DNA of 63,574 bases, the filler included, from Folioceros fuciformis (lineage: Eukaryota): assembly GCA_049999805.1 (NCBI GenBank). It is 4 parts of 3 records of this genome, joined end to end, with 100 filler letters (N's around TTAATTAATTAA, not from the genome) between each part and the next. Parts side by side here need not be neighbours in the genome. Positions count along the whole stretch, not along the records: positions 42,010 to 61,547 come from JBNGIO010005930.1; 3 more parts are not named here. One strand, given 5' to 3'. The notes under the pieces were generated by a model that saw nothing but the letters and a program-made list of their open reading frames with translations, was not told where the DNA came from and did not search any database. Made by a program: the position numbers and the translations under genes. Below are positions 33,821 through 61,647 of the stretch, piece after piece (position 1 is the stretch's first letter; the number at the start of each line of letters is the position of its first letter).

Positions 33821-35319
33821 ATGCTTGTGACGCAGCCCCTGGGGCGCATGAACTCGGCGACTTCGCTGCCGGACTTGAGATCATGCTCGGTGGACGTCTG
33901 GACCACGGGCGATCAGCAACAACCGTCGGAGGCAAGCACGGATCCTACCCAGGAGCTGCTGGAGGCGTGCAAATCCGTCCTGCTGGAGAACGACAAAGGG
34001 GGCTACACTATCCCGGCCAAGGGGCTGTATCCGTATCAATGGAACTGGGACTCGGCCCTGGTGGCCCTGGGCTGGACCTCCATTGACGAGACCCGGGCGT
34101 GGGAGGAGATGGAGAAGCTGCTCTCGGCGCAGTGGGAGGACGGCATGGTGCCGCACATTGTGTTTCACCGTCCCAGCCCGACCTACTTCCCGGGGCCCGA
34201 TATCTGGGGGACCGTGGAACATCCGCGGGCCAGCACTGGGATCACGCAACCTCCCGTTGCCGCCATCTCAGTCCGGAAGCTGGCGGAGACCGCGGTGGAC
34301 ACGGATCAGGCTCTGCGCAGGCTGAGGGTCATCTTCCCCAAGCTGCTCGCCTGGCACAGATGGTTCTACCGTGCGCGGGACCCCGAAGGCACGGGACTGG
34401 TGGCCACGCTCCACCCGTGGGAGAGCGGGATGGACAATAGTCCCGCATGGGACCAGGCTCTGGCGCGGGTTCCCGTGGACTCCATTCCCCCCTACGTCCG
34501 GCAGGACCTGGGCCACGTCGACTCCGCCATGCGGCCTAACAAGGAGGACTACGACCGCTACCTCACGCTCCTGTACAGATTCCGGGATGCAAACTATGAC
34601 TTCACTAGGCTCTACTCCATCTCTCCCTTTCGTGTCACGGATCTCTGCACCAATTGCATCCTGCACCGGGCCAACGCGGATCTGTTGTGGATGGCGAAGC
34701 AGCTAGAGGAGCAGGAGGCGGTGCGGGAAATTGAAACATGGCGTGACAGCACTGCTCGGGCATTCGACTCTCTCTACAACGAAAAGGCGGCCTTCTACTT
34801 CTGCAGGGACCAGCTCACGGGGAGTCTTGTTCCCGCCAGGACGTCGGCTGGTTTCCTCCCGCTCTTCGCCGGCATCGCGTCCCAGGCGCAGGCGGCCGCG
34901 CTAGTGCAGACTTTGCGTGAGTGGCTGGACGCTGTCCAATACGGCGTGCCCAGCCTGGACCCCTTTGACCCCAGCTTCGAGCCGCTCAGATACTGGCGGG
35001 GTCCNNNNNNNNNNNNNNNNNNNNNNNNNNNNNNNNNNNNNNNNNNNNNNNNNNNNNNNNNNNNNNNNNNNNNNNNNNNNNNNNNNNNNNNNNNNNNNNN
35101 NNNNGTCCGGTGTGGGCCATCGTGAACTGGATGATAGCAGATGGTTTGCTCCAATACGGCTACCTGCAGCTCGCACAGCGCATCAAGGATGACACTTACC
35201 GCCTCCTCAGCCAGCACGGCTTGTATGAATACTACAACCCAACCACGGGAGCTGGAGCTGGTGGGAATTACTTCTCGTGGACGGCAGCTATGTGCCTGGC
35301 TTGGCTGGCCAAGCCCTGA
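33821..35319 (+). CDS. GH63 glycoside hydrolase, mannosyl/glucosylglycerate-hydrolase-like
   Basis: Intronless core: YTIPAKGLYPYQWNWDSA, QWEDGMVPHIVFH, STGITQPP, HPWESGMDNSPAWD, YWRGPVW, LYEYYNPTTG, FSWTAA. The flanks of the gap at 35005-35104 overlap (gtcc) and join in frame. The true start is uncertain. Confidence 0.85.
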
Positions 35320-42009: not shown

Positions 42010-42939
42010 CCATACAGAGCAGCTTGCGGATCTTTGCAACATCTGCAGGTTTCAACGAAACCTGATATTAGTAAGTCAGTATCCTACGTCTGCCAACACT
42101 TTCAAGCATATGGTGAAGCTCACTGGACCGCAGTCAAGCGGATACTTCGCTACTTGAAAGGAACCCTAGAATTTGCGCTTGTGTATCGGGGCACAGGACC
42201 AGAATCAGTGCTTCCGATGGAAATCACGGCCTTCTCCGACAGCGACTGGGCCGGAGATCTTGAGAAGAGAAGGTCCACTGCAGCTTATGTATTCATGGCA
42301 GCACAAGCGGCCATTTCATGGCGAAGCAAAAAGATGCCAACGATTTGCCTATCGTCAGCCGAGGCTGAGTATGCCTCTTGTACAGAAACTGCAAAGGAAA
42401 TTACCTGCCAGCGAGGTTTCGCGGAGGGGCTGGAGATGCCATACACTAAGCCGACCAAGCTTTACTCAGATTCTCAGTAAGCGATAGCCTTGATGCAGAA
42501 TCCAGTCTTTCATAGCCACACCAAGCATGTTGAACTCAGAATTCACTTCATTCGGCAGCTCGTTGAGCGCGGCGTGGTGCAGCTACACTATGTTTCGATT
42601 GACGAAAACCAAGCAGATTTGTTGACCAAGCCCTTGTCTCAGCAGAAGCACGAGAAGCATCGCAAGGCGTTGGGGCTACAAGCAGCGTGCGCGACGAGCG
42701 AGAGGTAAGCTCGGACTGGTGCACAGCTGGAGCTATTCGAGTAAGTCGAATAACTCGAAGATTCGAAGCACAAGCTAGATTCTAAATTAAACTAGATAGC
42801 TAACAGCAGAAATAGAGGGAGTGTGAAAGCAGTTGATGCTTTATGTATTTCTTAGCTGTTAGAAATGTGAAACAATTTATTTAGCGAGTTAGTTATCCAA
42901 CGGCCAACCGCCTTCCTGTGTAATTCATTCATTCTATCA
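42010..42939 (+). mobile_element. Ty1/copia RT end, RNase H, PPT and short 3' LTR; degenerate
   Basis: YRAACGSLQHL..TKPDI, AVKRILRYLKGT, FSDSDWAGD, SSAEAEY, in-frame TAA at 42478, HSHTKHVELRIHF, NQADLLTKPL. PPT agaaatagagggag, then TGTGA at 42822. Confidence 0.88.
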
Positions 42940-42983
42940 ATAGAAGTGCGCGTTTGCATGAAAGCGCTGTCGCTCAGGGTCTA

Positions 42984-43115
42984 CAAAGGAGTGCGCCATG
43001 AGCAAAGACTTTTCAAGGTTTATGAAGGAGTGCGCCATGGGCAAGGACTTTTCAAGGTTTACAAAGGAGTGCGCCATGGGCAAGGACTTTTCAAGGTTTA
43101 TGAAGTAGTGCGCCA
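42984..43115. repeat. 39-bp tandem repeat (x~3.3)
   Basis: Units of aaggagtgcgccatgggcaaggacttttcaaggttta; the core ccatgggcaaagacttttcaa also occurs at ~40184 and ~40259. Confidence 0.85.
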
Positions 43116-43835
43116 AACGTAGGGTTGGCTTGGCATGATTGTTCCTCCAATCTTCGGAGTAGATGGGATTTTCCATCTTTTTTTCTCAATAATAAAACAT
43201 ACACTCGTATAACTACTTATATTATGGGCACAATAGTGTAAACCAAGTGGGAATGGATGAACATTTTTTTTGCAGGTAAAACAAATATGAAATTAAAAAT
43301 AGGATTAAGGTTAGTTGTCATTAAAAAAAGCTTTCAAGTTAAGCGGGAAAGCTTTGTTGGATGACATGAAATAGTTGAGATTTCAAGTTCTTGTGTGATA
43401 TCATTCGAAGCATATCCTTGGTGGATATAAGTAAAATTGATTGAGTGATGAGGTCAAACACATGAAGATATGAGATAAAGACTAGGATGGCAAAGGTTCC
43501 ATCCCATTTTTCGTCGTGCCACTTACATGTTCCGTGGAGAGGAGAGTTTAACAATTCCATGGTCAATTCTACTCCCGGAAAGGAGGAGAGAAGTAATGAG
43601 AAGAAATAATAAATTATTTTTTTCCATAATGGTACACTCTAAAATTTTGAATTCAATAATGCTACACTCTAAGTTTCTGAATTCAATAATGGTACACTCT
43701 GAACTTTTCATCCAGGGATAACATGTAGAGCAAAGCGTACATACAAAGCAAGGCACACATTGCCGTAAGATGACGGCATGTGGGTAACGTGTTCAGACAA
43801 GACAAGTAAAAAGATTTTGGATTAGAGACGACCAG

Positions 43836-46733
43836 CTAAGGGAAGCTTACAGATCGATAAGCTTTGGGGAGCAGAGTGGGAGCGGGGCAAGATGCTGGAC
43901 TACTGATGGTAGCTGTGAGGTTGCTGTTGCACACTGAAGCTCCCCGGTAGACTGTATTCTGTCCCAATGTCAACACCGAGTACTGTTGCACCAGTGCCAG
44001 AGCCTTGTACACGGATTCCAGGACTTCGTCCACAGATACTGCCAACCACAACACAGCAGAGCACAGCACAGCAGAGCACAGTGTTAGAATCTGAAAGCTC
44101 TCCAGCAGCTGCCGCTGATGGGCAGGGCACATGGCCAGTCGGAGACTGTGGTGGACGTGGATCTGAAGAGCGTGTCTGTTTGCGAACCTGTTTGCCTTTT
44201 CTTGGTGTTGGTGAGGTCCTTGGCGGTGATGGCAGCAGCACTGATGGAGGCATTGAGCGTGGACCATTGCGCTTGGGTCAAGTTCGCCAGCACCCCATCC
44301 GCGCTGGCTTGTCGGAAGGAGTAGAGAGTGGTGTTGAAGTCCTTGAACACCGACGTGCTAAGGTCCACCATGCGGTCCTCGTACGTGTCCACCTGCTTGC
44401 CTGAAATCGCCGATGGTGCGTATAAGCCCTGCGAGAAGACCGCGGCAACGCACAGGCCGATGACGAAGAGAGTCGATACCCAGGACGCAAACTGCTTCAG
44501 GAATTGGTTCCAGTTCACTCCCTTGGCCCCTTCCAGCAACCCCACGCCCACGATGGCTCCGGTGATGCACTGGCTGGAGGAAGTGGGGAGACCGTACCTG
44601 CCATGATCCCCGAAACCACAATATCATGCATGCACTGCAAGTGAAAACATCGTTGCACACCCGTCTGATCGACACCAGAATTATACAAGCAACATCATGA
44701 GACGGGAGAAGAAGAATAGCGGCGATATCGACTCACTGAGCAGCGATCATGATGACGAAGGCAGTGGCCAGCTCCGCGGAGAATCCTCTGGTCGGGGTGA
44801 GCTTGGCGAGCTTCACGCCCATGGCTCTGGTCACGTTGTAGCCGTAGGTGGCCAGACCCACGACCAAGCCCACGGCGCCCACGAGAATGATCCAAACCGG
44901 AGGTTTCACGTTCTTGCTCAGTGCCCCTTTCTTGTACACATCCCAGATGGTGGCCAGCGGACCGGCCATATACCCGACCTCCCCGGCCCCGTGCGCGAAG
45001 ATGACGCAGATAGCCGAGAACACCTGCAGGTAGCTGAATGCGTACTCCACTCGGGGCTCGAACACCTCCGCCTGCTCGTGGATGTCGTGCACCACCGCGT
45101 CCGTCTTCACCACCTTGTGGATGTCCACGTCCAGTCCGTGCGTCACCGCCCTGCTGGCCCTCTGCACCCAGCTGAGCTTCACGATTTCCGCACCACCGGC
45201 AGTTTCCGTGGCTTCCCCGACATGACTCATTTCCACATCCGGCTGCGCCTGTGTCGTCACCGCAGACCCAATCGCCTTGCCCTCATCGTCAAACACGTTG
45301 CCGGCCATCCTTCGGAGCAGGGGAAGCGCGATGAAGATGGTGAGCAAGGTGACGCCCCCGGCCACCACGGCGGAGATCCAGGCCGCCTTGCTGTCCGTCC
45401 AGTCGTCATTGGAGGATAGCGTTTTCTTCGCTCCCTGCAATTCCGAAATTCCATATCCCCCCCGTTGAGAATATACAGTGATTGCTATCCATCCTAACCA
45501 CTGTGACGCTGGTGTCTCAGGATCGCACACTCGCCAACGTACCTTGGTGAAGACGAAGTAGAGGTTGATGAAGGTCGTGATGAGCACGAATGGCGGGAGC
45601 ACCCAGAAGGAAAGAGCGTACGCGTTTTGGCGGCGGAGCACTAGGAAGCGCACCACCCAGAAGATGGCTGCGGACGCGACAGCGCTCAGGATGGGCGCGA
45701 TGAACCACGACAGCACGATGGCGATCACCCCCTTGTACGGTGGGAAGAGTGCGTCGTCCTTCTTCGCCCACACCACGGCGTTCTTACCGTCCCACACCAG
45801 TGCGAACCCGATGATTCCTCCGACTGCGCATCGACGATCATTGCAAATGCCGAGTTTGAGTTGGAGTACGGATTAAATGGTGCATCGGAATGTGCGGATG
45901 CATGCCATGCTAGTAGTGGTAAAGTCCGATTGCAGTACGTCGGAGGCGACAAGACCAGTCGTGTGGGATGCAAGCACCATTCGTGCATGGACTTACTAAT
46001 GGAGTGCGTGGAGGAGACGTTGAGGCCCCAGTACGAGGTGAGCACAAGCCAGACTGTTCCCACGCCCAAGGCGCAGACCATCCCATATGCGTACACCTCG
46101 GGGTCGCGGGAGAAGCTATTGATGTCGGCTATGCCAGATGCAATCGTGCTGGTGGATACTCGGCCCAACAACAGCGCTCCGGCGAACTCGAATACCGACG
46201 CGATCTGCAAACCAAAAAGAGCAGACGCCCACTCATGAACTGATTCACGGTTCACGACTTGACTCGAGATTCGCACCCCCGACACACACTCGAGACGACT
46301 CACACACCGTTCACGATTCATGAAGTGCGCCGTCAGCCCTAGCTAGATAGAGCACAAACGTGAGGGCGAGGCGAGGAAGAGGAATCGGAACTGCATGCGC
46401 TTGCAAGGCAGAGCCAGGGAGGAAGAAAGGGAGCCAAGGAAGTTAGGGTTTACGATCACAGCTTGGCGGAGGGTGAGAGTCTTGCTGCCGACGGAGGTGC
46501 CGAAGGCGTTGGCCACATCGTTAGCGCCTGCGGGAAGGAGGAAGCAACTGGTGAGGGAAGAAGCAACAGACGCACAAAGCATGGCTCAATCTGAAGATGA
46601 ATATGCTACAAGGAAGGAAGGAGATCAAAAAGAAGAGGAACGTGGAAGAAGAGCAACCAGTGCCCCAGCCGAATCCGAAAGCCACAATGACTCCCACCAC
46701 GACAAGCCACAGGTACTCCGGGAGCTCCGCCAT
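43836..46733 (-). CDS. PTB: PiT/PHO4-family phosphate symporter, PTB (Pho89-like) type
   Basis: GANDVANAFGTSVGS and FAHGAGEVG signatures, plus VSSTHSI, KLTPTRGFSAE and P.SSSQCITGAIVGVG. It starts directly with a TM helix (no plastid transit peptide, unlike PHT2) and has a long C-terminal extension. Multi-exon; TAG at 43836. Confidence 0.9.
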
Positions 46734-46876
46734 GACGTGATGAATCAGGAATCAGAGCAGGAGATGGAGCTAGAGCCGGAGCTGGAGCTGGAGCCGGGCC
46801 GTGGCGCAGGCTGCATCTGAGGGCGTTGAAGTCCACACCGGCCCGGTTTATGCCTCGTCCTAAGAGGATCCTGCCG

Positions 46877-46925
46877 GCATATGCTTCCCACCTCCAAATT
46901 GTTCTGGTGGGGGAAGTGGATATAC
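46877..46925. promoter_or_regulatory. Two P1BS (GNATATNC) PHR-binding sites upstream of PTB
   Basis: GCATATGC at 46877-46884 and GGATATAC at 46918-46925, ~145-190 bp upstream of the ATG. A third site, GAATATAC, lies in an intron at 45469-45476. Confidence 0.7.
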
Positions 46926-48464
46926 CGCAGCACCTTGACTCCTCCGACCACCGGATATGTATCTCCTTCTTCCAACGTGCGCCCCACTGTTGTGTCTCTC
47001 TCCGGGACATACACAACCTATCACCGGAGGAGCCACGTCCTGACCTGCAGCTCCCGGTGGTGTGGCTCTCAAGGCGAGGGAACCGGCCGAGTTCGGTGAC
47101 CGGAGAGTGTACTGTAGTCGGTAGCCGGTGACGTACAGCATACGGTGGGGGGGCGGCAAGGGTCAGCGAACGCATGGATGTATGGTAGGGGCCATTCCAG
47201 AGCATGCCTGCCAGTTGCGCTTGGTGGGGCCCGCTCATCTTTTTAGCTTTAGCCTTTTAGCCCTATTTTTGCCCACGGCCGCCAGCAAATCTGTGTACGG
47301 TACGGGCAAGGACGCGCGGGCTGCCAACCTATTGACCTTGCCTTCCGCCATCACCAGATCGTACCCTGCTGGAGAATCTTGCATATCGTTTACTTTGGTC
47401 TCTCTTGCGCTCTACTGCAACTACCCAATAATGTATGTAAATCAGTAAATTCTATTTTATTCTGTTGTATTGTAGTTATTTAAAGCAAGAATTTATCCAC
47501 CTGTGACAGTGGAAAAATAATTTTAAACAAGGGCACTGGAATTCCGAAGCTGATGCTCAATCATATCTCCTCCACAAAGGATACTGCCCCCCTGCAACTT
47601 CGTGCTGCCGTACGATTAACGTTTTGACCACAAAGAAATATTAAAAAAATTAAAAAAAAGGGAAGAATGCGGAAGGGAAGGGAAGGGAAGGCAAGGCAAG
47701 GGAAGATGATGGATGCTGCTGCTGCCCCCCGGCTATGTCATGGCATGTCATGTGGTGGAGCAGCAGGATGGAGTTGGAATGGGGAAGAAGGACGGACTCA
47801 TGTAATGGACGCAGGCAGGCAGATGAGCTTCCTACGTATCCGTGGTCATTGAGCTGAGGAGCTCCTACCTTTGGCCAGGATCCACATTTCGTTTGGAATT
47901 CTTGGAGCATGCCCGTTCCAATCGGAGTAGCATTGGTGCCCCTGCTGCTGGAAGAAAGAAAGATTGCTTGCCTGGCCGTGGGTCCTCTTTTCGTAGCAGC
48001 CTAGGCGCTTGGCTTTATATTCACAACTGCCTCCTGAAATTGTCCAGCCCTGGTGGTGCAGATAACTGTGCAACGGCATGTGGAGATGTAGGTAGACCCA
48101 TGCTACAGAGAAGGTGGGTTTTGGGCTGTGAGTTGAAGGCCGGGTTTTGGTTGGTTGCGTAGAAACGTTTCAACATGGCTGCCTTGCGGGGTGGACGTCG
48201 TTTGGAGAGGGCGTCCGGTGGGAGAGGATTTCTTGTGGCTGGAGATGGGGGACTGTGGGTTCAGGTGGCTCGGGATTGGACTCTTGGGTGGGACGGGACT
48301 GTCGAGCAGCATGATGATGGCGCCGCCCATTGCAATACCTGACTTTTCGCATGACGAGTCCCTCAGCTGGGGAATCAGATTAGTAGTGCAGGCGTGGGTC
48401 GGTAGATGCGGAGCTGGGTTCTCTGGATGTGCAGATGCCGATGGGTGGTGATGCCTCTTCGTCA

Positions 48465-48788
48465 GACTGGAGAGTGTCGGATGATGGGGAGTTGCGATGG
48501 CTTGGAGGATGCGAAAACTTTTGGTGACAGCGGACACGGTGAGTCGACTGTGTCTGCTAGGGCAGCACAGGGACGCTGTGGAGGCTCTGGGAGTTTTGGT
48601 GCGGACGGATTGCTGTCTTTCGAAGTGACTGGAGAGTGTCGGATGATGGGGAGTTGCGGTGGCTTGGAGGATGCGAAAACTTTTGGTGACAGCCGACACG
48701 GTGAGTCGACTGTGCCTGCTAGGGCAGCACAGGGACGCTGTGGAGGCTCTGGGAGTTTTGGTGCGGACGGATTGCTGTCTTTCGAAGT
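48465..48788 (+). repeat. 162-bp tandem duplication over the PPR start region
   Basis: gactggagagtgtcgg...ctttcgaagt at 48465-48626 and 48627-48788, with only a few substitutions. Confidence 0.95.
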
Positions 48789-51700
48789 CTCTCTTGTATG
48801 CTGTCCTCAAGAATTGTATGGATCAGCGGGATGTGGTTCTGGGTCGCCGCGTGCATGCGTTTATTGTGAAGCAGGGATATGGCTCGGACGGCTTCCTCTG
48901 CACCCACGTCATGCGATTGTATGCCTCTCATGCCGGGTTGCAGGAGGCGATGGATGTGTTCAATCAGGTGGCCACACCTGATGCGTTCACTTGGTCTGCC
49001 ATCATTTCTGCGCATGTCAAGTATGGACGAGATAGGGAGGCCGTCCGACTGTATAATCGGATGTGCAGGTCAGGTGTGAGGCCTGATTGTCATGTCTTTG
49101 TTGCTGCCTTGCAGGCTTGCGCCAGGGGGGCAGACCTGAATACAGGGCAGCGGGTGCATGCTGACGTGTTGGCCAGTGGGGTAGAGCCTAGTTCGTTTGT
49201 TTGCAATGCTCTGGTGGACATGTATGCCAAGTGCGGCAGCTTGCAGGACGCTCAAACAGTGTTTGATGGACTTGGTCGAAAGAATGTAGTGACTTGGAAT
49301 GCCATGATATCAGGGTATTGCCAACAGGGCAGGGGGCAGGAAGCCCTGAATCTTTACACTGCTATGCACAAGGACAGCGTTGCTGTGCCCGATTCTGTGA
49401 CGTTTGTGTGCCTTCTACACGCATGTGGCATCGTGGGCAACCTGGCTCTGGAGAAGGGGAAGGAGCTTCATGCACAGATTAGTAAGGGAGGGCTTGAAGG
49501 TGATGCGTTTGTGGCTAGCAGTTTGGTAAACATGTACGCAAAGTGTGGCAGCCTCGAGGACGCTTGTGCCGTGTTCGATGGGCTTGATCGGAAAGATGTG
49601 GTGACATGGAGTGCCATGATAGCAGGGTACTCCCGGCATGGCATGGGTCAGCAAGCACTTCGTGTGTACAGCGCTATGCAGGAAGAAGGCATGGCTGCAC
49701 CCGATCATGTGACATTTGCGTCTCTCCTGCAGGCATGTGCGAGTGTGGGCTCTCCAGCTTTGGAGAAGGGTAAACTGCTTCATGCTCAGATTGGGGAACG
49801 AGGACTACTTGTTCATGTGTCCTTGGGTTCCGGTCTTGTCAACATGTATGCGAAGTGTGGCAGCCTGGCAGATGCAAAGGTGGTCTTTGACGGCCTTGCA
49901 CGAAAGGATGTTGTGACATGGACTGCTCTGATAGCCGCATATTCTCAGCAAGGCATGGGCCAGGAAGCCCTGCAGCTTTACAGCAGTATGCAAGAAGAAG
50001 GCATGACAGCAGAGGATTCTGTCGCATTTATCTGCCTCCTGCAGGCCTGTGCGAGTGTGGGGACCCCCGCGTTGGAGAAGGGGAGGCAACTCCATGCACA
50101 GATTAGAGAACAAGGACTTGAGGCTGATTTGTTTGTAGCCAGCAGTTTAGTGAACATGTATGGCAAGTGCGGCAGCCTGGAGGATGCAAAGGATGTGTTT
50201 GATCGACTCCATGAGAAAAATGTTGCGACGTGGAGTGCCATGATTTCAGTATATTCCCAGCAGGGAATGGCTCCAGAAGCCCTTCGTCTTCACAGCGCTA
50301 TGCAAGAAGAGGGCATTGCACCCAATTCTGTGGTATTTGCATGCCTCCTGCACGCATGTGCAACTGTTGGGACCGCAGCTTTAGAGCAGGGAAAACAGCT
50401 TCATGCACAGATTCGGGAACGAGGACTCGAGGCTGATGTATTCCTGGCCAACAGTTTGGTGAACATGTATGCAAAGTGTGGCAGCCTAGAGGACGCTCGG
50501 GGCGTGTTCGACTCATTTGATCGAAGAGATGTGGTCACCTGGAATGCCATGATCTCAGGCTACTCGCAGCAGGGCCTGGGGCAGGAAGCCCTTGGCTTCT
50601 ACAGTGCTTTGCAAGAAGATGGCATGGCTCCACCTGATTCTGTGACATTCGTTTGCCTCCTCCGGGCATGTGCAAGTGTGGGCACCGCGGCTCTGAAGAG
50701 GGGAAGGCAGCTTCACACACAAATAAGAGCTCGAGAACTCGACGCTGATGTATTTGTAGCCAACAGCCTAGTAAGCATGTATGCAAAATGCGGGAGCTTG
50801 GGAGATGCCAAGCTCTTGTTCGATGGGCTTCGTTTCAAAGATGTGGTGACTTGGAATGCCATGATAGCAGGGTATTCCCAGGAAGGCATGGGGCAGGACG
50901 CCTTTGCACTCTACGGGGCTATGCAACAAGACGGCACGGTTGCACCAGATTCTCTGACATTTGTGATTCTCCTGCAGGCCTGTGCAAATATCGCAGCCCT
51001 GCATCTGGGAAGGCAGCTTCATGCACAGATTGTACAGCAAGGGCTCCAAGCTAACTTTCTTGTAGCCGTCAGTTTGATAAACATGTACGGAAAGTCTGGG
51101 AGCATGGCGGATGCCATGCAGGTGTTCGAGGCCCTGCCTAAAAGGGACGTCATCGCCTGGAACGCACTAATTGCAGGCTACTCCCGTCAAGGAGATAGTG
51201 GACTCGTCTTTGACATAGTTCAAAAAATGACCCAGGATGGCGTACAGCCAGACAGCATCACGTTCCTCTGTGCCCTGACGGCATGCAGCCATGCTGGTCT
51301 GCTCAGCAAGGGCCGAGACTACTTTGAGGCTATGAGCAAACAACATGGCATTGCTCCAACAAGGGAGCACTACGCATGCATGGTGGACCTCCTCTGCCGT
51401 GCCGGCCAACTTGACGAAGCACTGGCAGTGGTGAGGGCAATGCATGTGCTCCCTCACGATGCAGTTTGGCATACTGTACTGAGGGCCAGCAGGGAATGGA
51501 ACAACGTCGAGGTGGGACGCCATGCCTTTGATCAAGCGGTGAGGTTAGACGAGAAGGATGCAGCGCCATACGTCTTAATGTCGAGCATATACCGTGATGC
51601 CAGCATGTGGGAGGAGGCCCGAGAGATGCACTTTAGGAGGCAACGGATAGGAGCATGGAAGCAGCCTGGTCTGAGCTGGTGGACTGACACGGAGGGCCAG

Positions 51701-51793
51701 GTGCATACTTTTGTTGTTGGCCACAAATTTCATCTGAAGAGTGAAGAAGAGCTTGTTGCAACAACTAGCCAACGAAGACTACAAGCCACGTGA
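48671..51793 (+). CDS. PLS-class PPR protein, E+ type with WW-variant PG box
   Basis: Intronless ~1040-aa ORF (frame opens at GTG 48659; first ATG at 48671) with highly similar PLS triplets, E1/E2 and KQPGLSWWTDTEGQVHTF. It stops without a deaminase core. Confidence 0.93.
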   Translation: MRKLLVTADTVSRLCLLGQHRDAVEALGVLVRTDCCLSKSLLYAVLKNCMDQRDVVLGRRVHAFIVKQGYGSDGFLCTHVMRLYASHAGLQEAMDVFNQVATPDAFTWSAIISAHVKYGRDREAVRLYNRMCRSGVRPDCHVFVAALQACARGADLNTGQRVHADVLASGVEPSSFVCNALVDMYAKCGSLQDAQTVFDGLGRKNVVTWNAMISGYCQQGRGQEALNLYTAMHKDSVAVPDSVTFVCLLHACGIVGNLALEKGKELHAQISKGGLEGDAFVASSLVNMYAKCGSLEDACAVFDGLDRKDVVTWSAMIAGYSRHGMGQQALRVYSAMQEEGMAAPDHVTFASLLQACASVGSPALEKGKLLHAQIGERGLLVHVSLGSGLVNMYAKCGSLADAKVVFDGLARKDVVTWTALIAAYSQQGMGQEALQLYSSMQEEGMTAEDSVAFICLLQACASVGTPALEKGRQLHAQIREQGLEADLFVASSLVNMYGKCGSLEDAKDVFDRLHEKNVATWSAMISVYSQQGMAPEALRLHSAMQEEGIAPNSVVFACLLHACATVGTAALEQGKQLHAQIRERGLEADVFLANSLVNMYAKCGSLEDARGVFDSFDRRDVVTWNAMISGYSQQGLGQEALGFYSALQEDGMAPPDSVTFVCLLRACASVGTAALKRGRQLHTQIRARELDADVFVANSLVSMYAKCGSLGDAKLLFDGLRFKDVVTWNAMIAGYSQEGMGQDAFALYGAMQQDGTVAPDSLTFVILLQACANIAALHLGRQLHAQIVQQGLQANFLVAVSLINMYGKSGSMADAMQVFEALPKRDVIAWNALIAGYSRQGDSGLVFDIVQKMTQDGVQPDSITFLCALTACSHAGLLSKGRDYFEAMSKQHGIAPTREHYACMVDLLCRAGQLDEALAVVRAMHVLPHDAVWHTVLRASREWNNVEVGRHAFDQAVRLDEKDAAPYVLMSSIYRDASMWEEAREMHFRRQRIGAWKQPGLSWWTDTEGQVHTFVVGHKFHLKSEEELVATTSQRRLQAT

Positions 51794-52310
51794 TATACTC
51801 ACTAGTTTACGAGGTATGTTTCGTTCTTAGGTTTCTGTACCAACCCTTACCTACAAAACAAGCATTGACATCACAGCACGCGAAAGTACGCAAAATTGAC
51901 TGGAGAAGCTAGTCAGATAGTACAGGGAATGAGAACTGAAAGGTTCGGCCCCATCCACCCACACCCGCCCACAGAATTTGCTGTTCTTATAAAAGTAGGG
52001 AGAACTCAAGAAGAAAGGGGAATCCGAACATGAAGCAGCAAGATGCAGCCAAAGCATGGTTATCTGCTCAAACTTCCTCAATTTCAGAGCAGAGTTGACA
52101 TTCGAAAGGAGACTTAAGGCCCGCTCCGGCTGCAGAAAAGTACGTCAACCAGATCCATCCTGTACTAATCTGCGCCTCTCCTTCGCAAATGTCACCGCTC
52201 CACTTCCTTACGAAACATAGGCTGAGGTTCGGCAGGGCAGGCGGCGCAACGAGCCCGAGGAGCAGCAGATCTGACCACTTCCCTACCTGTCTATCTAACC
52301 TACTCACCGT

Positions 52311-52746
52311 TTAAGCCCCAGGGGACTTGATATGGTATAGCTTGCCGAATACATGCAGTGCCGTAACAAAGCCGATGAAGCAGAGGCTCATGACAAGCAC
52401 CACTGTCGGGGTGATCTTCAATCCAGGGGCGTCGTCCGTGTAAAAGCGTAACATATTGCTCCCGCCACCTCCAAAACCGCCACCTCCGCCTGATGAAACT
52501 CTCCGCCTGCGCAACCCCGCTGCGGCAGCACTACCCCTGACAGCGGCTCCCGNNNNNNNNNNNNNNNNNNNNNNNNNNNNNNNNNNNNNNNNNNNNNNNN
52601 NNNNNNNNNNNNNNNNNNNNNNNNNNNNNNNNNNNNNNNNNNNNNNNNNNNNCTCCCGAAGGAGGAGCCCGCACTCCTGCTCCAGCTGCCCCCGATCCAC
52701 CCCGAGAAGCCGAGGTGGCAGCTTGGCTCTGCGATCCTTTTGCCAT
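52311..52746 (-). CDS. SEC61B: Sec61 translocon beta subunit
   Basis: MAKGSQSQ...LRRRR...[41 protein letters not shown]. The flanks of the gap at 52553-52652 overlap (ctcccg), so the gap is probably spurious. Confidence 0.95.
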
Positions 52747-53047
52747 CGCTCCCGAGCAGATCACACAACACAAAGTACGCTTCGAGACGAGACACCACTT
52801 TCCCAATGAAGACGCTGGCTCAACAACCACACGGATGGACCAAGTCAGACAACCACGACTGCATATATAGACCCTCGAGTAAACCTAATTGGGAACATGC
52901 ACGCACGCTGCCTCGGTAGCGGACAATAAAATACATAAGGAATAATAAACTGCTTTTAACGTGACGAAGGAGTTGGCATTCCCGCTCACATTTGTACAAA
53001 TAGCTATCCTCTGATACGTGTAGCGCTCATATCACAACCTTGCTACG

Positions 53048-56000
53048 ATGGTGATCGGGGAGAGCCTGATTGTAATGCTGGACGTCGGTCCCTCCATGCA
53101 ACCTCATGTTGAAGTGATACACAAGTCCCTTTCTTCGCTTGCGCTGCGAAAGGTGAGAAATCCACCTCGGGTTTCTCTTCTGCCTGTGTTGCCGGTAATT
53201 CTGGGCATTTCGGCGAGCTGAGCTGAGCTGAGCCGACCGCTTGATTCCTGTTTTCTGCAGATGGTTGGCCACAAAAATGATGCCATTGGGCTTGTGTGTT
53301 TCGGGACCAGGAGTAAGCCGAAGCTTCAGGCTTGGTTTTCCGTCAGCAAGCAATTTAGGCTTGAGGCTTTGGTTGAGGGGGCCTGTTTGCTTTGTCATCG
53401 CAGAGACGAGGAATGCTCTGAGTACAGAGGTTGGTGGTTACGCGAACATCGAAGTTGCTCGCGAAATTCAGGTGTTGAATACTGACGTTGCCTACACCCT
53501 CGACCAATTGCCGTGGGGAGGTGCCGCTGCGGACTGTATCCGTTTCTTCCATGGGTTGTACTTAAGTGCAGTGCAGGTTTTCCATCTTCCGCTGTTTCTG
53601 TCAAAGCTCCTTGACATCAGGTCAGTTTTGGATGCCGTGGTGGTGGGCTTGGATATGTTCAGAAAGCAAGTTGAGACCACTAGAAATGGCCACAAACGGC
53701 TTTTTCTCATTACAGACGCTGAATCATCTCTGAGGGAGCCCTATCAATTGACACTTCAAGAGCAAGTCGATTTGATTGGTGATAAGTTGGTTGAGAATAA
53801 GGTCAAGTTTGATGTTCTCAAGGTTTCCAAGAATGATGACCCGATTTCCAAAACTACGCGCCAGCAAAACGAGCATTTTTTGAGAACTTTTGTTACGAGG
53901 ACTGAAGGAGAGATGGAGGAAGTTTTCAACCATGCTGCAATAATGGCAGCTATAAAGCCCCGGCTTTCTCCAACGACCTTGTACAGAGGGGATTTTGAGC
54001 TGACACCGGAAATGAAACTTAAGGTGAGACTCGGTGGAAGGGTGTGTTGATGCTTTGCATCACTGGTCGTTTCTTGGTTGAGAAGCACTATCATCTCTCA
54101 TGGTTTGGCAGGTGTGGGTCTACAAGAAAGTCTCCCAAGAGAGAATACCGACGCTGAAGAAATTCTCAGACAAGGCACCAGCTGATGATCCATATGCAAC
54201 CCGCGAGGTCAAAATGGACGTTGAGTACAAAAGCACTCTGGATCCTAGCATTACATTTCCTCCCGAGCAGAGAGTGAAGGCCTACAAGTACGGTGCAAAT
54301 AATATCCCTCTTGATCCAAAAGTGGTGGATGCAGTTAAGCTGGTCACAGAAAAGGGCTTGAAGCTTCTTGGATTTGTTACGTCTGAAGAGGTTCCAAGGT
54401 GAATCCACAGTCCCATGTGTCCTGCTGCATGTTGTTCTATCGTTCAATCTCGCCACTTCGGTGTTGTAGACTGTCAGCCGACAATCTTGTAAGACTTCCA
54501 GGACTCTCCCGGATGCAGACACTACTACATGAAAGATACGAAATTGTTCATTCCAGAACCAGGGAATGTCAAATCCAGCATGGCAATGTCTGCCCTGGTG
54601 AGGGCAATGAAGAGTACAGGAATGGTTGGAATTGCTCGATGTATTTGGAGAAAAGGACAAGCAAATGTTATCATTGGAGTCCTCACACCTAATCCTGCAA
54701 CTGATGACACCATGGTGAGTGCTTAGATGAAGAATTGATGAGTTTTCATCTCCAAGGCTGGGAGGAAGTGAAACAGTTTTGTGCTGGAGCATAGACTTTC
54801 TCGTTTGTTGAGGTTTGACTTTAGCGAAGATGGTCTGTCGCTGGACAGTTTTGCTACATATTGAAAACATGTGTGGGATTTTGACAGGAAGACACATTCT
54901 ACTTCAATGAGGTTCCGTTTGCAGAAGACATAAGAGAGTTCCCGTTCAACTCTTTTAGCAACCGTCCAGCATCCCAACGACCTTCGGCCTCTCAGGAGGC
55001 TGCAGCAGAAAATCTCGTAAAAATGCTCGATTTAAGTCCTTCTCCTGGGGAAGAGGCCTTGCAACCTGAGAAAACTTGTAATCCAATCTTAATGGTGAGC
55101 GCTCTCGTTCACTCAGTGAAATGTGTGCTAGTTGTGTCTTTCCTGTTGATTGTGAGATAACAGCGTGCAGTGAGTGGGCATGTCTTGCCGTGAGTAATCT
55201 GTGCTTGGGTGTGCAGCGGTTTTACAATTTTTTGCATGCAAGGTTGCTAGATTCTGAAGCTGCAGTTCCAGCTGTACCTGAACTCCTGAGAAAGACAATG
55301 GAGCTGGACCATACTTTAGAATCTCAGGCTCATTTGGCATTAAAGCAGTTCTCCAGTGAATTCACTTTAAGGGCCAAAGTCCAGGTGCAACTCGTTTCTG
55401 CGGCTTGGCTGATTCTGAATAAAAAACACACTGTATTATTTCAGAATGCAAGGGTGTTTTATTTTGAAGTCTTTGCAATGAGCGTTTCTCTGCAAGCTGA
55501 ACTGACTTGTACGGGAATGTAGTATTCTATGTCATTGTTGATGGTTCATTTGTAGCAAGGCTGACATCATGCATCGCTGGTTGTCTGTTTGGCAGAGGGC
55601 TAACGCTGAACCCAAGTTTTGGAAGGAAGGACTTGCTGATGCCCCAAGAAATGACAGAGCTTTGCCGGACGGTGCCATGGCAGGGGAGGGGAGCAACCAA
55701 AGCGAGATCACATTTGAGAGTCTTGCAGTGAAAAAGGTTGACGAAGTTGGCATCGCTCATCCAGTTGACGATTTTGAGACGCTTCTGGCAAGAAGAGATG
55801 GAGACCAGTTTGTTCCGATTGCCATCCGCGGAATGAAGAAGGTCATAGCTGATATGTTGGACTCTGCGTACAAGGGGAACACTTACGAGAAGGCTCTCTC
55901 ATGTCTGATAGCGCTCAGATCAGGGTGCTTGAAAGAGGAAGTATGTGATGTAGTAGATGAGGAAAAAACATACTGTGTGTGCGGGTGGTGGACGTACCGC

Positions 56001-56411
56001 TTTCCAAACCGCTCATTGACTCTTGTCTCTTCTGTACGCAGGAACCAGCAGAGTTCAACGAGTTTCTGCGACAGCTGGTCATCAAATGCCGGGGAAGGCG
56101 GCTGAGTGATTTTTGGGACAAAGTTGCGTCCCAAAGTATAACTCTAATTAACTCAGAAGAAGTCTACACAAGGTAACTGGGGTTCTTGAACTGCCTCGCA
56201 CCAACGTCATCGATGTAAATTTTGGAATGCGCCAAGGTAACATACGTGTGTCTCTGACGGTGCCTTCGGAGTTCATTGCAGTAACGTATCTACAAATGAG
56301 GCAAAAGCCTTCTTGGCAGGACCAGAGCCAGGGAAAGACGTTCTGTCCAGGGACGACGGGCCTGACGAGGAGATGGATGAAATGGACGCCCTTCTAGACG
56401 AGGCCATGTGA
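53048..56411 (+). CDS. KU80: Ku80 (XRCC5), full-length, multi-exon
   Basis: vWA (LDVGPSM, GGYANI, KRLFLITDA), core (VWVYKK, KAYKYG, LKLLGF, PFAEDIREFPF) and C-terminal helical domain (YEKALSCLIALRSGC, EPAEFNEFL). It ends DEEMDEMDALLDEAM*. Confidence 0.93.
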
Positions 56412-56621
56412 CAGCAAAAATTCTTTTCGATGCCGGGGTGCATTTCTGTAACCCATGTCACAGCTCTTCGGTAAAGTGAGTTGTGCAAACATGCTATACT
56501 AAAGCGGCTGCTGTATCAAATTACGATGATCGCACAGCATCCGTTGATAGAACCCTAGGTTCCATAACCTGTACAAATGTAGAGGAAACCTGTCATACCA
56601 TAATTTTTCCCTGAACGGATT

Positions 56622-57454
56622 TCAGTTCTTCAACTCCCGAATGCCTAGTTTCTTGACCAGGTTCAGGTAGTCTGCATCGTCCTCGCTACGCAAATACATC
56701 AGCAATTTCTTGCGCCTGGCAATCATGGCCTTGAGCCCCTTGCGGGAAGCAAAATCCTGTGCGGCAAATTGGTTCCTCAGAGCCCAAGACATATGCCCAG
56801 CAGCAATTGCAGCAGCTGAATCAGATCTAGTAAAGCTGCCATACCTTTTTGTGAACCACCAGATGGTCCGATAGATATTTGATCTTTGCAGTGAGCAGAG
56901 CAACTGCTCCGGCAAAGCAACAACACAACGTGAGCAAACATACTAAACGGACTAGCACACACAAAAATGTCGAGAGCCAAGCACACACAGGACCTTGCAC
57001 TTGCACCGAGCCGGAATCGCCTTCGTGGACTTTGAAGGCGTCAGCCACCTTCTGCAGATCCAGCTTGTGTCGCTCACCAGCACGGAGCATTTTCTCCGAC
57101 GATTGATACTCCTGAAAGACGCAAGCGCGCTAAGCAGGCAAGCAAACACGCAGTTCAGGTCCGCCACGCAAACAGGATTCGCAGGGTGCGTACTAGGCCT
57201 GGAAATTGCAGCGGCGCAGTGACCGCCGATACGCGGAGAGGAGCCCATGCCGTGCCGCTCCGTTGCTGCGGAAGCTGCAGAGAGTTCAGAGCCGACATCC
57301 GCCGTCAGCGACCTGTCACGGAAACAGCACCTCGGCGACCCTGGAGCTCACTCACCTTGTGTGCCTGAAGGCCGCTGCCGTTGTTGCTGTTGTTGATGCT
57401 GCATTGCTGGAAGGCGATGCCAGCCATGGACTGAAGACCTACCAGGGCCGCCAT
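56622..57454 (-). CDS. rps15: Nuclear-encoded ribosomal protein uS15 with plastid-like transit peptide
   Basis: Five exons: MAALVGLQSMAGIAF...|LPQQRSGTAWAPLRVSA...|...FKVHEGDSGSVQVQ|VALLTAKIKYLSDHLVVHKK|DFASRKGLKAMIARRKKLLMYLRSED..YLNLVKKLGIRELKN*. This is a bacterial-type S15 signature. Confidence 0.88.
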
Positions 57455-57732
57455 GTCCCCAGCCTGGGCGGAGTGGGCGAAATGCAAGGACAGAGAAGAT
57501 GCGGAAAGGTAGATGGATGAATAGATAGGGTTAGACGCCGTTCTTCCGGCTGCGATCTGCGGCGAAGAAGAATGAGAGGTAAGAAAGAGGATAATGGGAT
57601 CGGCGACGGGGAGAAGACGAAGAGGTAGGAGGAGAGGCAAAGGATTTTGCCTGGGATTTGTCGCTCGCGTCTACAGGAATGTAGTTGTCCGTTGTGCGGT
57701 GGGTCTGTGTGAGCGTCGCAATCAGAGCAGAG

Positions 57733-59500
57733 ATGGCAGACCTGAAGTTGGTGTGTCTACGGTTGCCCGCCGTCTACCGCTCATCTTGCCCCAGGCCGAT
57801 GTCAATGCTCGATGCATGTGCACGCCACGCTACCTGCCCAAGAAGTGTGCCACTGCCTGGGCCAAGCCACTCTCTTGGTGCTGGCTGGGCTTTGTCTCCT
57901 ACACGCTTCAAAGTCTGTGAGCTGTCCTCGGAAGCTCAACGCTTCCTTTGTCCTCGCATCCGACTGGGTGAATCCGCCTCTACATCTTTGCAGATTCTGA
58001 ACCAGAATCTACAGAGTGTTGGGTCCACTGCGTCATCTCAGTCTCAGCTGGGTGGGAGACAATACATGCCGACACCAGCGCGCACCCACCTCCGCCCATC
58101 TCAAGTCTGACGCCTTTCAGTTCCGATTTGGTCTTGAAGAATTGACTGGGAGCGGGACTGCGAGAGGTCTGGTCCAAAATGTCGAGTTTTCTTTGCGAAA
58201 TCCAGCAAGCTGCTGCTTTTTCAGCCAGGCCCTGCAACCCACACACGAGCTTTTTTGGAAGGCGTTGCTTCGGCTGCAATTCGGTGGCATTCGGCTTATC
58301 TGCAAAGGTTGGTTTCCTTCAATTGCCTGAAACCTCACCTTTTGGCGATGGGGAACTAGGCGTGAATCTTCTTTATGCTTGAGTTGCCTGGAACCTCGTC
58401 TCCTGGAGATGGGGAATCAGGCTTGAACCTCCTTTCGTCTGTTTGTGAATGCTCATGCCCAGCAGCAGAGGGAGCGGAAGGTATGGCAAGTGCAGGCCAC
58501 TGCCAACATAGCGGACTATGCTTTGGGCTTTGTCGCGGAAAACATCTGGCCAGCTGTGACCAACATCGCCAGCTACGCCTTCGGGTGTGTGGAGTTCCTG
58601 GACGATGATCCGGCCAACGAAGTGGCAAGTTCCAAGAGCGTCATTCTGAAGTGGGTCATCACCATCATCGCAAATAGGCTGCAATTGAGACCCAAAGACG
58701 TGTTGCTGGACACCAAGCTGGAGGACATGGTGTTTCTGGGTGGCAAGTCCGATTCCAATTTCCGGACGGTATGCACCCCTCCACATCGATTCCCAGCACG
58801 CAGGACTTGTGTGTGCGTGTGCCCCTCCTAATCTGATATGCTAAAATCTTGTGGCGTCAACGTCTTAACCACGACCGAATTCATCGTTGCCTTGGCAGGT
58901 GGAGAGCTTGATGGACATCGAGGACCTGTTTTCTGTCATCATCCACCCCAACTACATCGACACTCTAGCATCCTACACTGTACGGGAGCTGTCAGACTTG
59001 ATCGAAAGCCAGTACCTGATAAGCCTCAAGGAGGTAGTAGCACATCCCCCGAACATCTTAGCTATTCGGCCTTGTCTGTCTCCCTCACCTGCTTGGTTGA
59101 CAGTCTAGGGGTTGCCTTCATATTGCAGCTTCAGCACACCCTGTTCAGCAAATCCTACGACTACAACGTCTTCCTACTGGAGAGGATGCTTCAAACCACA
59201 ATAGGCAACGTTCTCAACATGGACCTTAGGGACCCCAACAAGTTAGACATGAAGTTGTCTTCCTGCCAAGCCAACCCTGTGTTGCTGGTAACTTTTCCAA
59301 CGCAAGCTCCTGCCTGTTGCACCAACCAACCCTTCTTCCCTTTCTGATACTTGTGCCTGCTCATCGTCCAGATGGAGAGCCTGAGAGACTTGAAGGGCAA
59401 GTTTGGAGTGGACTTAGACTACGCCACATTCAAGGATTCCACCATCCGGGAGGTTGCTAAGCGGATAAGTTCGCACTACAGATACATAATCCGACCATAG
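57733..59500 (+). CDS. Tandem acyl-carrier-protein-like protein with long N-terminal presequence
   Basis: In-frame exons ~58463-58768, 58899-59033, 59129-59287 and 59372-59500 give two ~80-aa helical repeats: WVITIIANRLQL..LDTKLEDM..LGGKSDSNFRT|VESLMDIEDLFSV..TVRELSDLIE and MLQTTIGNVLNM..LDMKLSSCQANPVLL|MESLRDLKGKFGVDL..TIREVAKRI. The 5' exons are less certain. Confidence 0.65.
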
Positions 59501-60831
59501 TCAGGCAATCAGCACCACATACCAATCCTATTCAGCAAAAGATGCTGCTCTTGAAATTGTACAGCAAATGCCCCATTGACACGCACGGATGACGTGCATT
59601 CGCCGACTGTGAATCCATTCCACCATGTTGGTCCACTAGCCCAGTCCCAACCTCTCCCTGAGGGGTAGTGTTTGGAAGGTCTTAACTGTGCAAATATTTT
59701 GTCACAGCAGAGCTTGGACAGTTCCCCACATGCCCACCGTCCAGCAATATGAGACGAGATCGGAAGCTCTGATTTTTCCAGGGTGTGGCTGCCATGACAT
59801 AAGCAATGAGATAGAAGGAAGATATTTCTGGTTTGGGACGGGCAGCCAACAAGATGGAGCTACAGTGTGGTGGGGCATGCCAACGCCATGCAGCCATGCT
59901 CTTACTCTTTGCGCCGTCTACTCGGAGTGCTGTGTGTTGGTGTAAGCAACCGGCTTGGGTTGGTGACGTGGTGCACAACTTTTCTATCGCTTTCCTTTGT
60001 CAAGATCTTTCAGTGCCAGGGTAGGGGATCATCAAAATCCATCTCTGCGGAGAGCCCGTCGACGATGCATTGGGCGCACGCGGTGTGATCTTTTCTCCTT
60101 CCTCAGATCCGAGTCTCCGCTCTGCGCAGGCCAGGCATTTGGAGCTGTGGCCACTGTCCTTCCTCCTCAGCACACCGACCACTTCCCTTCCTCCTGCATG
60201 CGGGAGCAGGAACAGTGACTTGTCGTCGCTCCCTCTTCCGGCGCGTTTTTCGAGTTGGTGCTCAGATTTGATCTGCGAGCCGATCGCATTAAAGCAGACG
60301 CTTTGAGGAGTCGTTGCACTCCACCTTCCCTGGAAGAAATCTCGTCCTGCAGGTTCCATTCGATACCCTGGTTCTCTTACGACATGAAGCTAGGTGTTCC
60401 GGTGCTGCTCGGCGTGGCCGGAGCCCTGTGGATTCGGCTGCGGCTGTGGATTAGGACGTGCATTGTGATCGCCAGTATCATCGCGGAGGCCTTGCATGAG
60501 ACGGACTCTGGACCCTATCCGACGCCCTAGCAGGTATTCCGTGATACATTATCTCTGCCAGCCCTCAGCAGTGCCGCTGCGGTTTGTTGTTGCTGTGGCT
60601 TGGTGCCATGGCGGTGGCAGTGGCATGATATGGCAACGACACATTAAGACTAAGTTGCCGGTAGACGCTGTGCATGATCTGTTCTGAGAGATTTCCTGAC
60701 TTGCATGCAATCAGGCAAGGTCGACCTTGCAATCAAGCAAGGTACGAAGGTTTGAGGACCATTTTTCGGTGAAAGGTTTTGGATCTGCGGAGCAGTCCTC
60801 AGCAGCTGGCGCAGCGGCAGCAGCAGCAGGC

Positions 60832-61547
60832 ATGGCTAAGGAGCTTGGGGAAGCAGTATCCGGCAGCTTCGATGCCATCGTCATCGGGGCCGGGATCATG
60901 GGGAGCTGCACGGCGTACGAGCTGGCCAAGAGGGGCAAGACAGTGCTCCTCCTCGAGCAGTTCGATTTCCTCCACCACAGAGGGTCCTCCCACGGGGAAT
61001 CCCGCACCATCCGCATCACATACCCGGAGGACTACTATGTGGAGATGATGCAGGAATCATATAGGCTGTGGGAGGAAGCTGAGCACGAGGCAGGGTACGT
61101 GGTGTCGAGGAGAACAGGGCAGCTGGACTTCGGGCCAGAGGACAACCCCAGTCTGCAAGCGATCATCCGTGCCATAGAGAAGGCGGGCATCGAGCACCGG
61201 ATTCTCCTCCCTCACCAGCTGGCCCCGGAGTTTGGTCACGTCCGCATCCCGAAGGGCTGGATCGCTATACACACAGCCCACGGCGGGGTGGTCCGGGCAT
61301 CCAAGGCCGTGGCCATGTTCCAGGCCCTGGCTCTGAAGCACGGGGCGGTTCTGCGGGACAACGCCACGGTGCAGGCCGTGGATCCTTGCTGGCGGCTTCT
61401 CGGGGGCGGCCATGGCGTGCAGGTGAGAAGCAGCCGGGGGACCGCTGAGGCCGAGAGGGTGGTGATCGCAGCCGGGTCCTGGACGGGGAAGCTAGTGCGG
61501 GAGCTTTCCGGGCTGACGCTTCCCATCCAGCCCTTGCAGACGAGCAT
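60832..61547 (+). CDS. Sarcosine/pipecolate oxidase (FAD-dependent), 5' part truncated by linker
   Basis: FDAIVIGAGIMGSCTAYELAKRG (GxGxxG), LLEQFDFLHHRGSSHGESRTIR and VVIAAGSWT. Confidence 0.9.
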
Positions 61548-61647
61548 NNNNNNNNNNNNNNNNNNNNNNNNNNNNNNNNNNNNNNNNNNNNTTAATTAAT
61601 TAANNNNNNNNNNNNNNNNNNNNNNNNNNNNNNNNNNNNNNNNNNNN
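61548..61647. other. Artificial scaffold linker
   Basis: N44-TTAATTAATTAA-N44. Confidence 0.95.

Follow-up and report, generated by a model that had tools for sequence, protein, structure and literature searches.

The DNA analyzed in this study (the window) is a stretch of 63,574 nucleotides, filler included, from Folioceros fuciformis (assembly GCA_049999805.1). Its segment from record JBNGIO010005930.1 (positions 42,010 to 61,547) holds, on the plus strand, a nuclear, transcribed and spliced land-plant gene for two tandem, divergent domains that resemble the acyl carrier protein (ACP), named D1 and D2 below. The coding sequence extends from 58179 to 59500 (+) over five exons and comprises 855 nt, corresponding to a protein of 284 amino acids (aa). 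All four introns are in phase 0 and bounded by GT..AG. A 4436-nt contig of the public run X1 matched the region with zero mismatches, and each intron was removed exactly in this one transcript contig. The label of run X1 is limited to 'RNA?'; despite this, the precise removal of four introns indicates that the contig is derived from cDNA. A second run, X2, yielded no contig on the region. A preliminary description of the locus, made from the sequence alone, had given four exons (58466-58768, 58899-59033, 59129-59287 and 59372-59500). These proved to be real, and the same contig joins them to a further exon at the 5' side, all five coding exons being found in one transcript. The features of the transcript and gene are listed below.

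57651-58178 (+): 5' leader of the transcript in the X1 contig, unspliced, 528 nt, with 7 upstream ATGs
58179-58307 (+): coding exon 1, 43 aa; opens the N-terminal leader, basic and poor in acidic residues
58308-58465 (+): intron 1, 158 nt, GT..AG, phase 0; acceptor inside the CAGCAGCAG run
58466-58768 (+): coding exon 2, 101 aa; end of the leader, acidic N-region and first half of D1
58751-58759 (+): Asp-Ser-Asn codons of D1, with DS at 58751-58756
58769-58898 (+): intron 2, 130 nt, phase 0; directly before VESL of D1
58899-59033 (+): coding exon 3, 45 aa; second half of D1 and start of the linker
59034-59128 (+): intron 3, 95 nt, phase 0; between the two repeats, within the linker
59129-59287 (+): coding exon 4, 53 aa; linker and first half of D2
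59288-59371 (+): intron 4, 84 nt, phase 0; directly before MESL of D2
59372-59500 (+): coding exon 5, 42 aa and the stop codon TAG at 59498-59500; second half of D2

The X1 contig aligned to the window in the following pieces.

57651-58307: piece 1, followed by 158 nt skipped
58466-58768: piece 2, followed by 130 nt skipped
58899-59033: piece 3, followed by 95 nt skipped
59129-59287: piece 4, followed by 84 nt skipped
59372 to past 60100: piece 5

In exon 2, the acidic N-region displays the pattern VWQV...WP.VT..AS and is followed, from about 58631, by the first half of D1: helix I (TIIANRLQL), a LDTKLE loop and the motif GGKSDSNFRT. Exon 3 continues with the acidic helix II, VESLMDIEDLF, and then with helices III-IV, up to about 59015. 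The first half of D2 starts at about 59162 in exon 4 with LLERMLQTTIGNVLN, followed by KLDMKL, and its second half, in exon 5, reads MESLRDLKGKFG ... STIREVAKRI. As had been described, GGKSDSNFRT ends exon 2 and QANPVLL ends exon 4 (59267-59287). Each of the two tandem repeats is about 85 aa long.

The acceptor zone of intron 1 (58458-58468) contains three AGs spaced by 3 nt. The contig is spliced at the middle one, at 58464-58465; thus exon 2 starts at 58466. Use of either of the other two AGs would lead to the gain or loss of one Gln. A model of 285 aa, with one extra Gln, was used for the orthologue alignment, the D1-D2 comparison, the shuffles against the ACP hidden Markov model (HMM), the isoelectric points (pI), the paralogue search and the regional identities, and the 284-aa model for the total identity count. 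Intron 1 also holds a 61-nt tandem duplication (58317-58435, +), consisting of two 58-nt copies with 78% identity; Tandem Repeats Finder, run over 57500-59700, reported no repeat.

Relatives of the protein were searched for by exhaustive phmmer, with exon 2 as the query, among 1.84 billion representative proteins. Two proteins, P0004 and P0003, were found at E <= 0.001. P0004 (319 aa) has the same architecture end to end, and is the one full-length orthologue found. P0003 (175 aa) follows P0004 and then reads into an intron. Word-based searches with P0004, at near and shorter lengths, added P0005, a 65-aa exon also reading into an intron and lying on a contig equal in length to that of P0003; they returned only these three proteins, from one other source. 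When exon 2 was used for a word-based search at longer lengths, the existing P0004 was missed, and blanks from that tool are therefore weak evidence. No paralogue was detected elsewhere within the window. As judged from these searches, the gene appears restricted to a narrow land-plant lineage, with one other source among the 1.84 billion representative proteins.

Comparison of the 284-aa protein with P0004 gave 139 identical residues out of 265 aligned (52% overall). This identity is unevenly distributed: 28% in the leader, 33% in the N-region, 69% in D1, 33% in the linker and 58% in D2. The longest identical run is 18 residues long, DSNFRTVESLMDIEDLFS; when the identity vector was shuffled, only 10 of 20000 trials gave a run of this length. 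It surrounds helix II of D1 and includes the DS pair. The high identity of the domains, together with this run, indicates that both domains are under constraint, which appears to be strongest around the would-be attachment site of D1. An alignment restricted to the family had at most two informative rows, and MAFFT misplaced the D2 exons of the window onto D1.

The two repeats are related to each other. Profile-profile comparison of D1 with D2 by hhalign gave a P value of 3.9e-4 over 66 columns, with 35% identity. The significance of local alignments was assayed against 2000 shuffles per pair. The observed score was reached by 4 shuffles for D1 and D2 of the window, by 9 for D1 and D2 of P0004, and by none for D1 of P0004 with D2 of the window; for D1 of the window with D2 of P0004 it was reached by 113, which is not significant. 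The second-half exons of the two domains matched each other by BLASTP at E 4e-6, with the leading GTG read as M, which adds one identity. For the first halves alone, BLASTP gave no alignment.

Introns 2 and 4 fall in the same column of the profile alignment, just before [V/M]ESL. P0003 departs from the spliced sequence exactly after SNFRT, and P0005 exactly after ANPRLL, indicating that the other species shares both intron positions. The shared column fits the duplication of an ACP-like unit that already held an intron, and D1 and D2 would thus have arisen by internal duplication of such a unit. The preliminary description had reported a phase-0 intron just before VES or MES in both repeats and had proposed internal duplication. 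The introns are present, with GT..AG borders, and are confirmed by the contig; their common column and the hhalign P value fit the proposal. According to that description, the position would also match that of the intron separating DSLDT from VE in plant ACP genes.

Resemblance to ACP was assayed by library scans, which covered P0004 and the single exons of the window, and by direct comparison with ACP profiles. For D1 of P0004 (residues 141-221), all three NCBIfam families reported were ACP families: NF002150 (E 0.004, 17.4 bits, positions 5-78 of 80; cut-off 66 bits), TIGR00517 (E 0.012, 15.4 bits; cut-off 70.45 bits) and NF002148 (E 0.055, 13.3 bits; cut-off 71 bits), none of these cut-offs being reached. 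Among the Protein Data Bank (PDB) sequences, the four matches of this domain were all bacterial ACPs (E 0.096-0.19), and a profile including the D1 exons of the window gave a best E value of 0.011 against the PDB. Pfam did not report D1 of P0004. Exon 3 of the window, the second half of D1, matched PP-binding_2 at positions 54-87 of 96 (E 0.045, 14.4 bits; cut-off 32). When D1 was compared by hhalign with a profile of 71 distinct gammaproteobacterial ACPs, it aligned end to end over 71 columns (P 0.0024). Moreover, only 1 of 3000 shuffles reached the score of the window's spliced protein against the gammaproteobacterial ACP HMM.

For D2 of P0004 (residues 246-308), the sole Pfam family reported was PF00550 (PP-binding), matched at E 0.0043 over positions 3-65 of 67, with 17.7 bits for a gathering cut-off of 20.8 bits. 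Exon 5 of the window alone matched the same model at positions 35-67 of 67 (E 0.16, 12.7 bits). Exons 3 and 5 each match the half of the model expected for their place, namely the C-terminal half. From these comparisons, the two repeats are very probably homologous to ACP. By the thresholds of the ACP families themselves, the predicted protein is not a member.

At the would-be attachment site, D1 reads GGKSDSNFRT in the window and GGNCDSNFRT in P0004, DSNF being common to both species. The site can be aligned with ACP in three registers. With HMMER, the DS of D1 lies on the DS of ACP, so that the attachment serine is a Ser followed by one inserted Asn. With hhalign, the alignment is ungapped from the preceding Phe through helix II, and pairs the serine with Asn, the Leu with Phe and the Asp with the Ser of D1. 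The third register, GGxS as in peptidyl carriers, uses the upstream Ser of the window, which is a Cys in P0004. At the site of D2, the window has QANPVLL and P0004 has AANPRLL, with Asn-Pro at the attachment position in both species. As had been claimed, D2 is devoid of the phosphopantetheine serine, no Ser being present at this site in either species.

In the ungapped register, D1 displays Glu at positions +5 and +11 from the attachment position. D2 has both in P0004, but only that at +5 in the window. The pI of D1 is 4.75 in the window and 4.46 in P0004, thus acidic as in ACP, and the acidic helix II contributes VESLMDIEDLF. D2 is neutral to basic, with a pI of 9.21 in the window and 6.40 in P0004, and its helix MESLRDLKGKFG is not acidic. 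Having lost both the serine and the acidic character, D2 cannot be an acyl carrier.

The N-terminus of the protein differs from that previously proposed. The preliminary description had started the protein at ATG 57733, with a long Ser/Arg/Pro-rich presequence. This start was rejected, and the presequence lies outside the protein: ATG 57733 opens a 125-aa Ser/Arg/Pro-rich open reading frame (ORF; 57733-58110, +, stop codon at 58108-58110) in a frame different from that of the ACP-like coding sequence, and the X1 contig is unspliced from 57651 to 58307, with no splice leading from this ORF to the coding sequence. The sole in-frame start is ATG 58179, which adds the 43-aa first exon and the intron at 58308-58465, both missing from the earlier account. 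The resulting leader (49 residues in the 285-aa model) has a pI of 9.7 and 2 acidic residues; that of P0004 has a pI of 11.2. Such a basic leader with few acidic residues is compatible with a putative organellar transit peptide.

The ATG of the 57733 ORF is in what looks like a good context, and the ORF gave no Pfam match. It may be translated, act as a regulatory upstream ORF, or be part of a separate overlapping transcript. A one-codon upstream ORF is also found at 57679. The contig does not reveal where the transcript starts, and the 528-nt leader is part either of the mRNA that is translated or of an overlapping, longer form of the transcript.

The synthesis of fatty acids and lipoate in organelles is centred on ACP, which in mitochondria also serves as a structural partner of LYR-motif proteins. 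Since D2 is not a carrier, and since the motif of D1 is disturbed (DSNF for DSL) but its invariant acidic helix is intact, docking is favoured as the role of the protein. We give about an even chance to the idea that no acyl chemistry is involved and that it acts as a mimic of ACP or as an adaptor. In the mechanism that we infer, helix II of D1 would dock on one of the proteins by which ACP is normally recognised, with D2 acting as a second binding or structural module, or surface. The protein would thus be built of a basic leader, a conserved acidic N-region and two ACP-derived domains. More specifically, both domains could be serineless (Asn in D1, Pro in D2), and the protein an organelle-imported pseudo-ACP regulating or scaffolding an ACP-dependent machine through mimicry of the recognition helix. 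This more specific proposal is tentative and, in our estimation, rather unlikely. The machine could be fatty-acid synthesis, lipoate synthesis or a complex of LYR proteins. The preliminary description had likewise proposed an organellar pseudo-ACP acting as a scaffold or regulator; the basic leader is the one feature in line with the putative organellar location.

Several observations weigh against a function of this kind, or against the ACP ancestry on which it is built. All ACP matches, of D1 as of D2, lie under the curated cut-offs. Exon 5 matches the unrelated family FecR_C (E 0.097) as well as it does PP-binding. When D2 was compared by hhalign with the gammaproteobacterial ACP profile, 10 columns were aligned, off register, at E 0.1. 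AlphaFold2, run on P0004 alone and without an alignment, gave no usable fold (mean predicted local distance difference test score, pLDDT, of 31.7). In the ESM Atlas, the top cluster for D1 (0.91) is unnamed, ahead of a 'putative ACP' (0.87) and of a cluster with 18% PP-binding members (0.86); these are to be taken as leads. The 7 upstream ATGs of the 528-nt leader raise doubt about efficient translation of the ORF from that form of the mRNA. The claim of the preliminary description that the repeats are ACP-like is therefore upheld in part: both repeats match ACP or PP-binding models in the correct register, but every match is sub-threshold, and AlphaFold2 yielded no usable fold (pLDDT 31.7). 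Finally, D1 keeps a conserved Asp-Ser pair, aligned by HMMER with the DS of ACP; D1 could therefore be a true carrier.

If D1 were a genuine carrier, the serine of its DS pair would be phosphopantetheinylated, the protein would be a specialised ACP of a lineage-specific acyl or polyketide-like pathway, and D2 would be a degenerate helper. The DS pair is indeed present in both species, within the invariant 18-residue run; its Ser falls on the ACP attachment serine in the HMMER alignment; and D1 is acidic like ACP and matches the ACP models nearly from end to end. This register nevertheless requires a one-residue insertion, the Asn, right after the serine, at the very start of helix II, and to our knowledge carrier proteins nearly always have a hydrophobic residue directly behind this serine. 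Moreover, the register favoured by hhalign has no gap and pairs the serine with Asn and the Leu with Phe, and the upstream serine of GGKS, which might have served instead, is a Cys in P0004. We consider a genuine carrier rather unlikely, but the main rival of the docking hypothesis. A resemblance to ACP arisen by chance or convergence, in a helical orphan protein that is unrelated to ACP and internally repeated, would agree with the weakness of the profile matches (E 0.004 to 0.19, all under the curated thresholds), with the failure of D2 to align with the bacterial ACP profile and with the lack of a fold from AlphaFold2. It accounts poorly for the identity of the matches: for P0004, carrier proteins were the only families or structures returned by Pfam (1 of 1), NCBIfam (3 of 3) and the PDB (4 of 4), in register and near full length, and both second-half exons of the window match the C-terminal half of PP-binding models. 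Given also that a single shuffle in 3000 equalled the score of the window protein, coincidence is very improbable.

The gene could also be a duplicated ACP gene, either young or in decay, that is transcribed but serves no function under selection. Its narrow distribution (one other source, which accounts for the 2 representative clusters retrieved from 1.84 billion proteins), the degenerate cofactor motif and the long leader rich in upstream ORFs all point in this direction. Against it, the frame is intact and both intron positions that split the repeats are kept at 52% overall identity; conservation is centred on the domains (69% and 58%) and not on the remainder (28-33%), and the invariant run of 18 residues was equalled in only 10 of 20000 shuffles. 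We thus attribute little probability to such decay.

The predicted protein was compared with known carrier systems. D1 and D2 are close in unit length (about 80-85 aa) to the ACP of type II fatty-acid synthesis (AcpP and plastid or mitochondrial ACP; PF00550, TIGR00517). D1 aligns with it near end to end, has a pI of about 4.5-4.75, and keeps the helix I pattern, the loop and the acidic helix II (VESLMDIEDLF, to be compared with VELVMALEEEF). In contrast to type II ACP, the plant protein has two domains per chain and an extra conserved N-region, and scores far under the curated cut-offs. Furthermore, the DSL site is changed to DSNF in D1, where the loop before it holds extra residues, and to ANP in D2, and D2 is neutral to basic.

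A precedent for docking without acyl chemistry is provided by the mitochondrial ACP of Plasmodium falciparum. Its Ser is replaced by Phe, it keeps Glu at +5 and +11, and it binds Isd11(-Nfs1) (PMC8547962). In mitochondrial ACPs, contacts with LYR-motif partners are made by these two Glu (PMC8547962). As in D2 of the plant protein, the attachment serine is replaced, and the Plasmodium protein, which has an ACP fold, still works by docking of helix II. Glu +5 and +11 are shared by D1, in the ungapped register, and by D2 of P0004, and D2 of the window has that at +5 only. Unlike the plant protein, the Plasmodium protein is single-domain, with another replacement residue, and is found in an organism that has lost mitochondrial type II fatty-acid synthesis. 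It has a LYR-type partner and a mitochondrial location, whereas the plant protein is known from its sequence alone.

The BADC proteins are described as BCCP homologues without biotin that act as regulators of the plastid acetyl-CoA carboxylase of plants. The likeness to the plant protein is one of concept: a carrier homologue without its cofactor site could compete with the true carrier or dock beside it. BADC has a biotinyl/lipoyl fold, belongs to another step of the pathway, is widespread in plants and has been characterized by experiment, all of which set it apart from the protein studied here. Finally, in polyunsaturated fatty acid (PUFA) and polyketide synthases, ACP units also follow each other head to tail in one polypeptide; these repeats are reported to be nearly identical, to keep their serine and to lie inside megasynthases (PMC5067506). 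D1 and D2 differ from them in being diverged (35% over 66 columns) and stand-alone, with at least one domain lacking the serine.

The preliminary description had considered the protein to be outside any characterized family. No curated family claims it, and the literature covered, which leaves out most subscription journals, yielded no account of a free-standing plant protein made of tandem ACP-like domains. Cofactor-less look-alikes of carriers are already known both as regulators (BADC) and as pure docking subunits (the Plasmodium protein). A free-standing, two-domain plant derivative of ACP, partly or wholly serineless, would extend this theme by a new case, and would offer a simple system to study the role of the ACP recognition helix without acyl chemistry. 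If the protein were indeed a pseudo-ACP, it would be, by analogy with BADC, the ACP counterpart of those regulators of plastid acetyl-CoA carboxylase. Its importance is limited by the very narrow distribution, with one other source among the 1.84 billion representative proteins.

The gene is flanked by a divergent gene for a bacterial-type ribosomal protein S15 (56827-57559, -; Pfam Ribosomal_S15, E 6.8e-6). The 5' exon of the S15 gene (57356-57559) is covered by another X1 contig, with a gap of only about 90 nt to the 5' end of the contig of the ACP-like gene. This arrangement suggests a putative bidirectional promoter, shared by the ACP-like gene and by S15, a probable organellar ribosomal protein. 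Downstream, the contig of the ACP-like gene extends about 2.4 kb past 60100, towards the next gene on the same strand, a FAD-dependent oxidoreductase (60700-61560, +; Pfam DAO, E 1.4e-36). The extension, in the zone 59501-61560, could result from overlapping untranslated regions, from read-through or from a merge by the assembler.

Elsewhere in the window, runs of N were read as scaffold gaps. A long open frame at 33815-35020 (+) matches the mannosylglycerate hydrolase MGH1-like glycoside hydrolase domain (E 7.6e-94). Two long intron-less genes for PLS-class pentatricopeptide repeat proteins, located at 4302-7010 and 48647-51793 (+), helped to assign the window to a land plant; the latter carries the E motif known from organellar RNA-editing factors. 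Other features detected are copia-type gag sequences, an F-box gene and a PHO4-type phosphate transporter.

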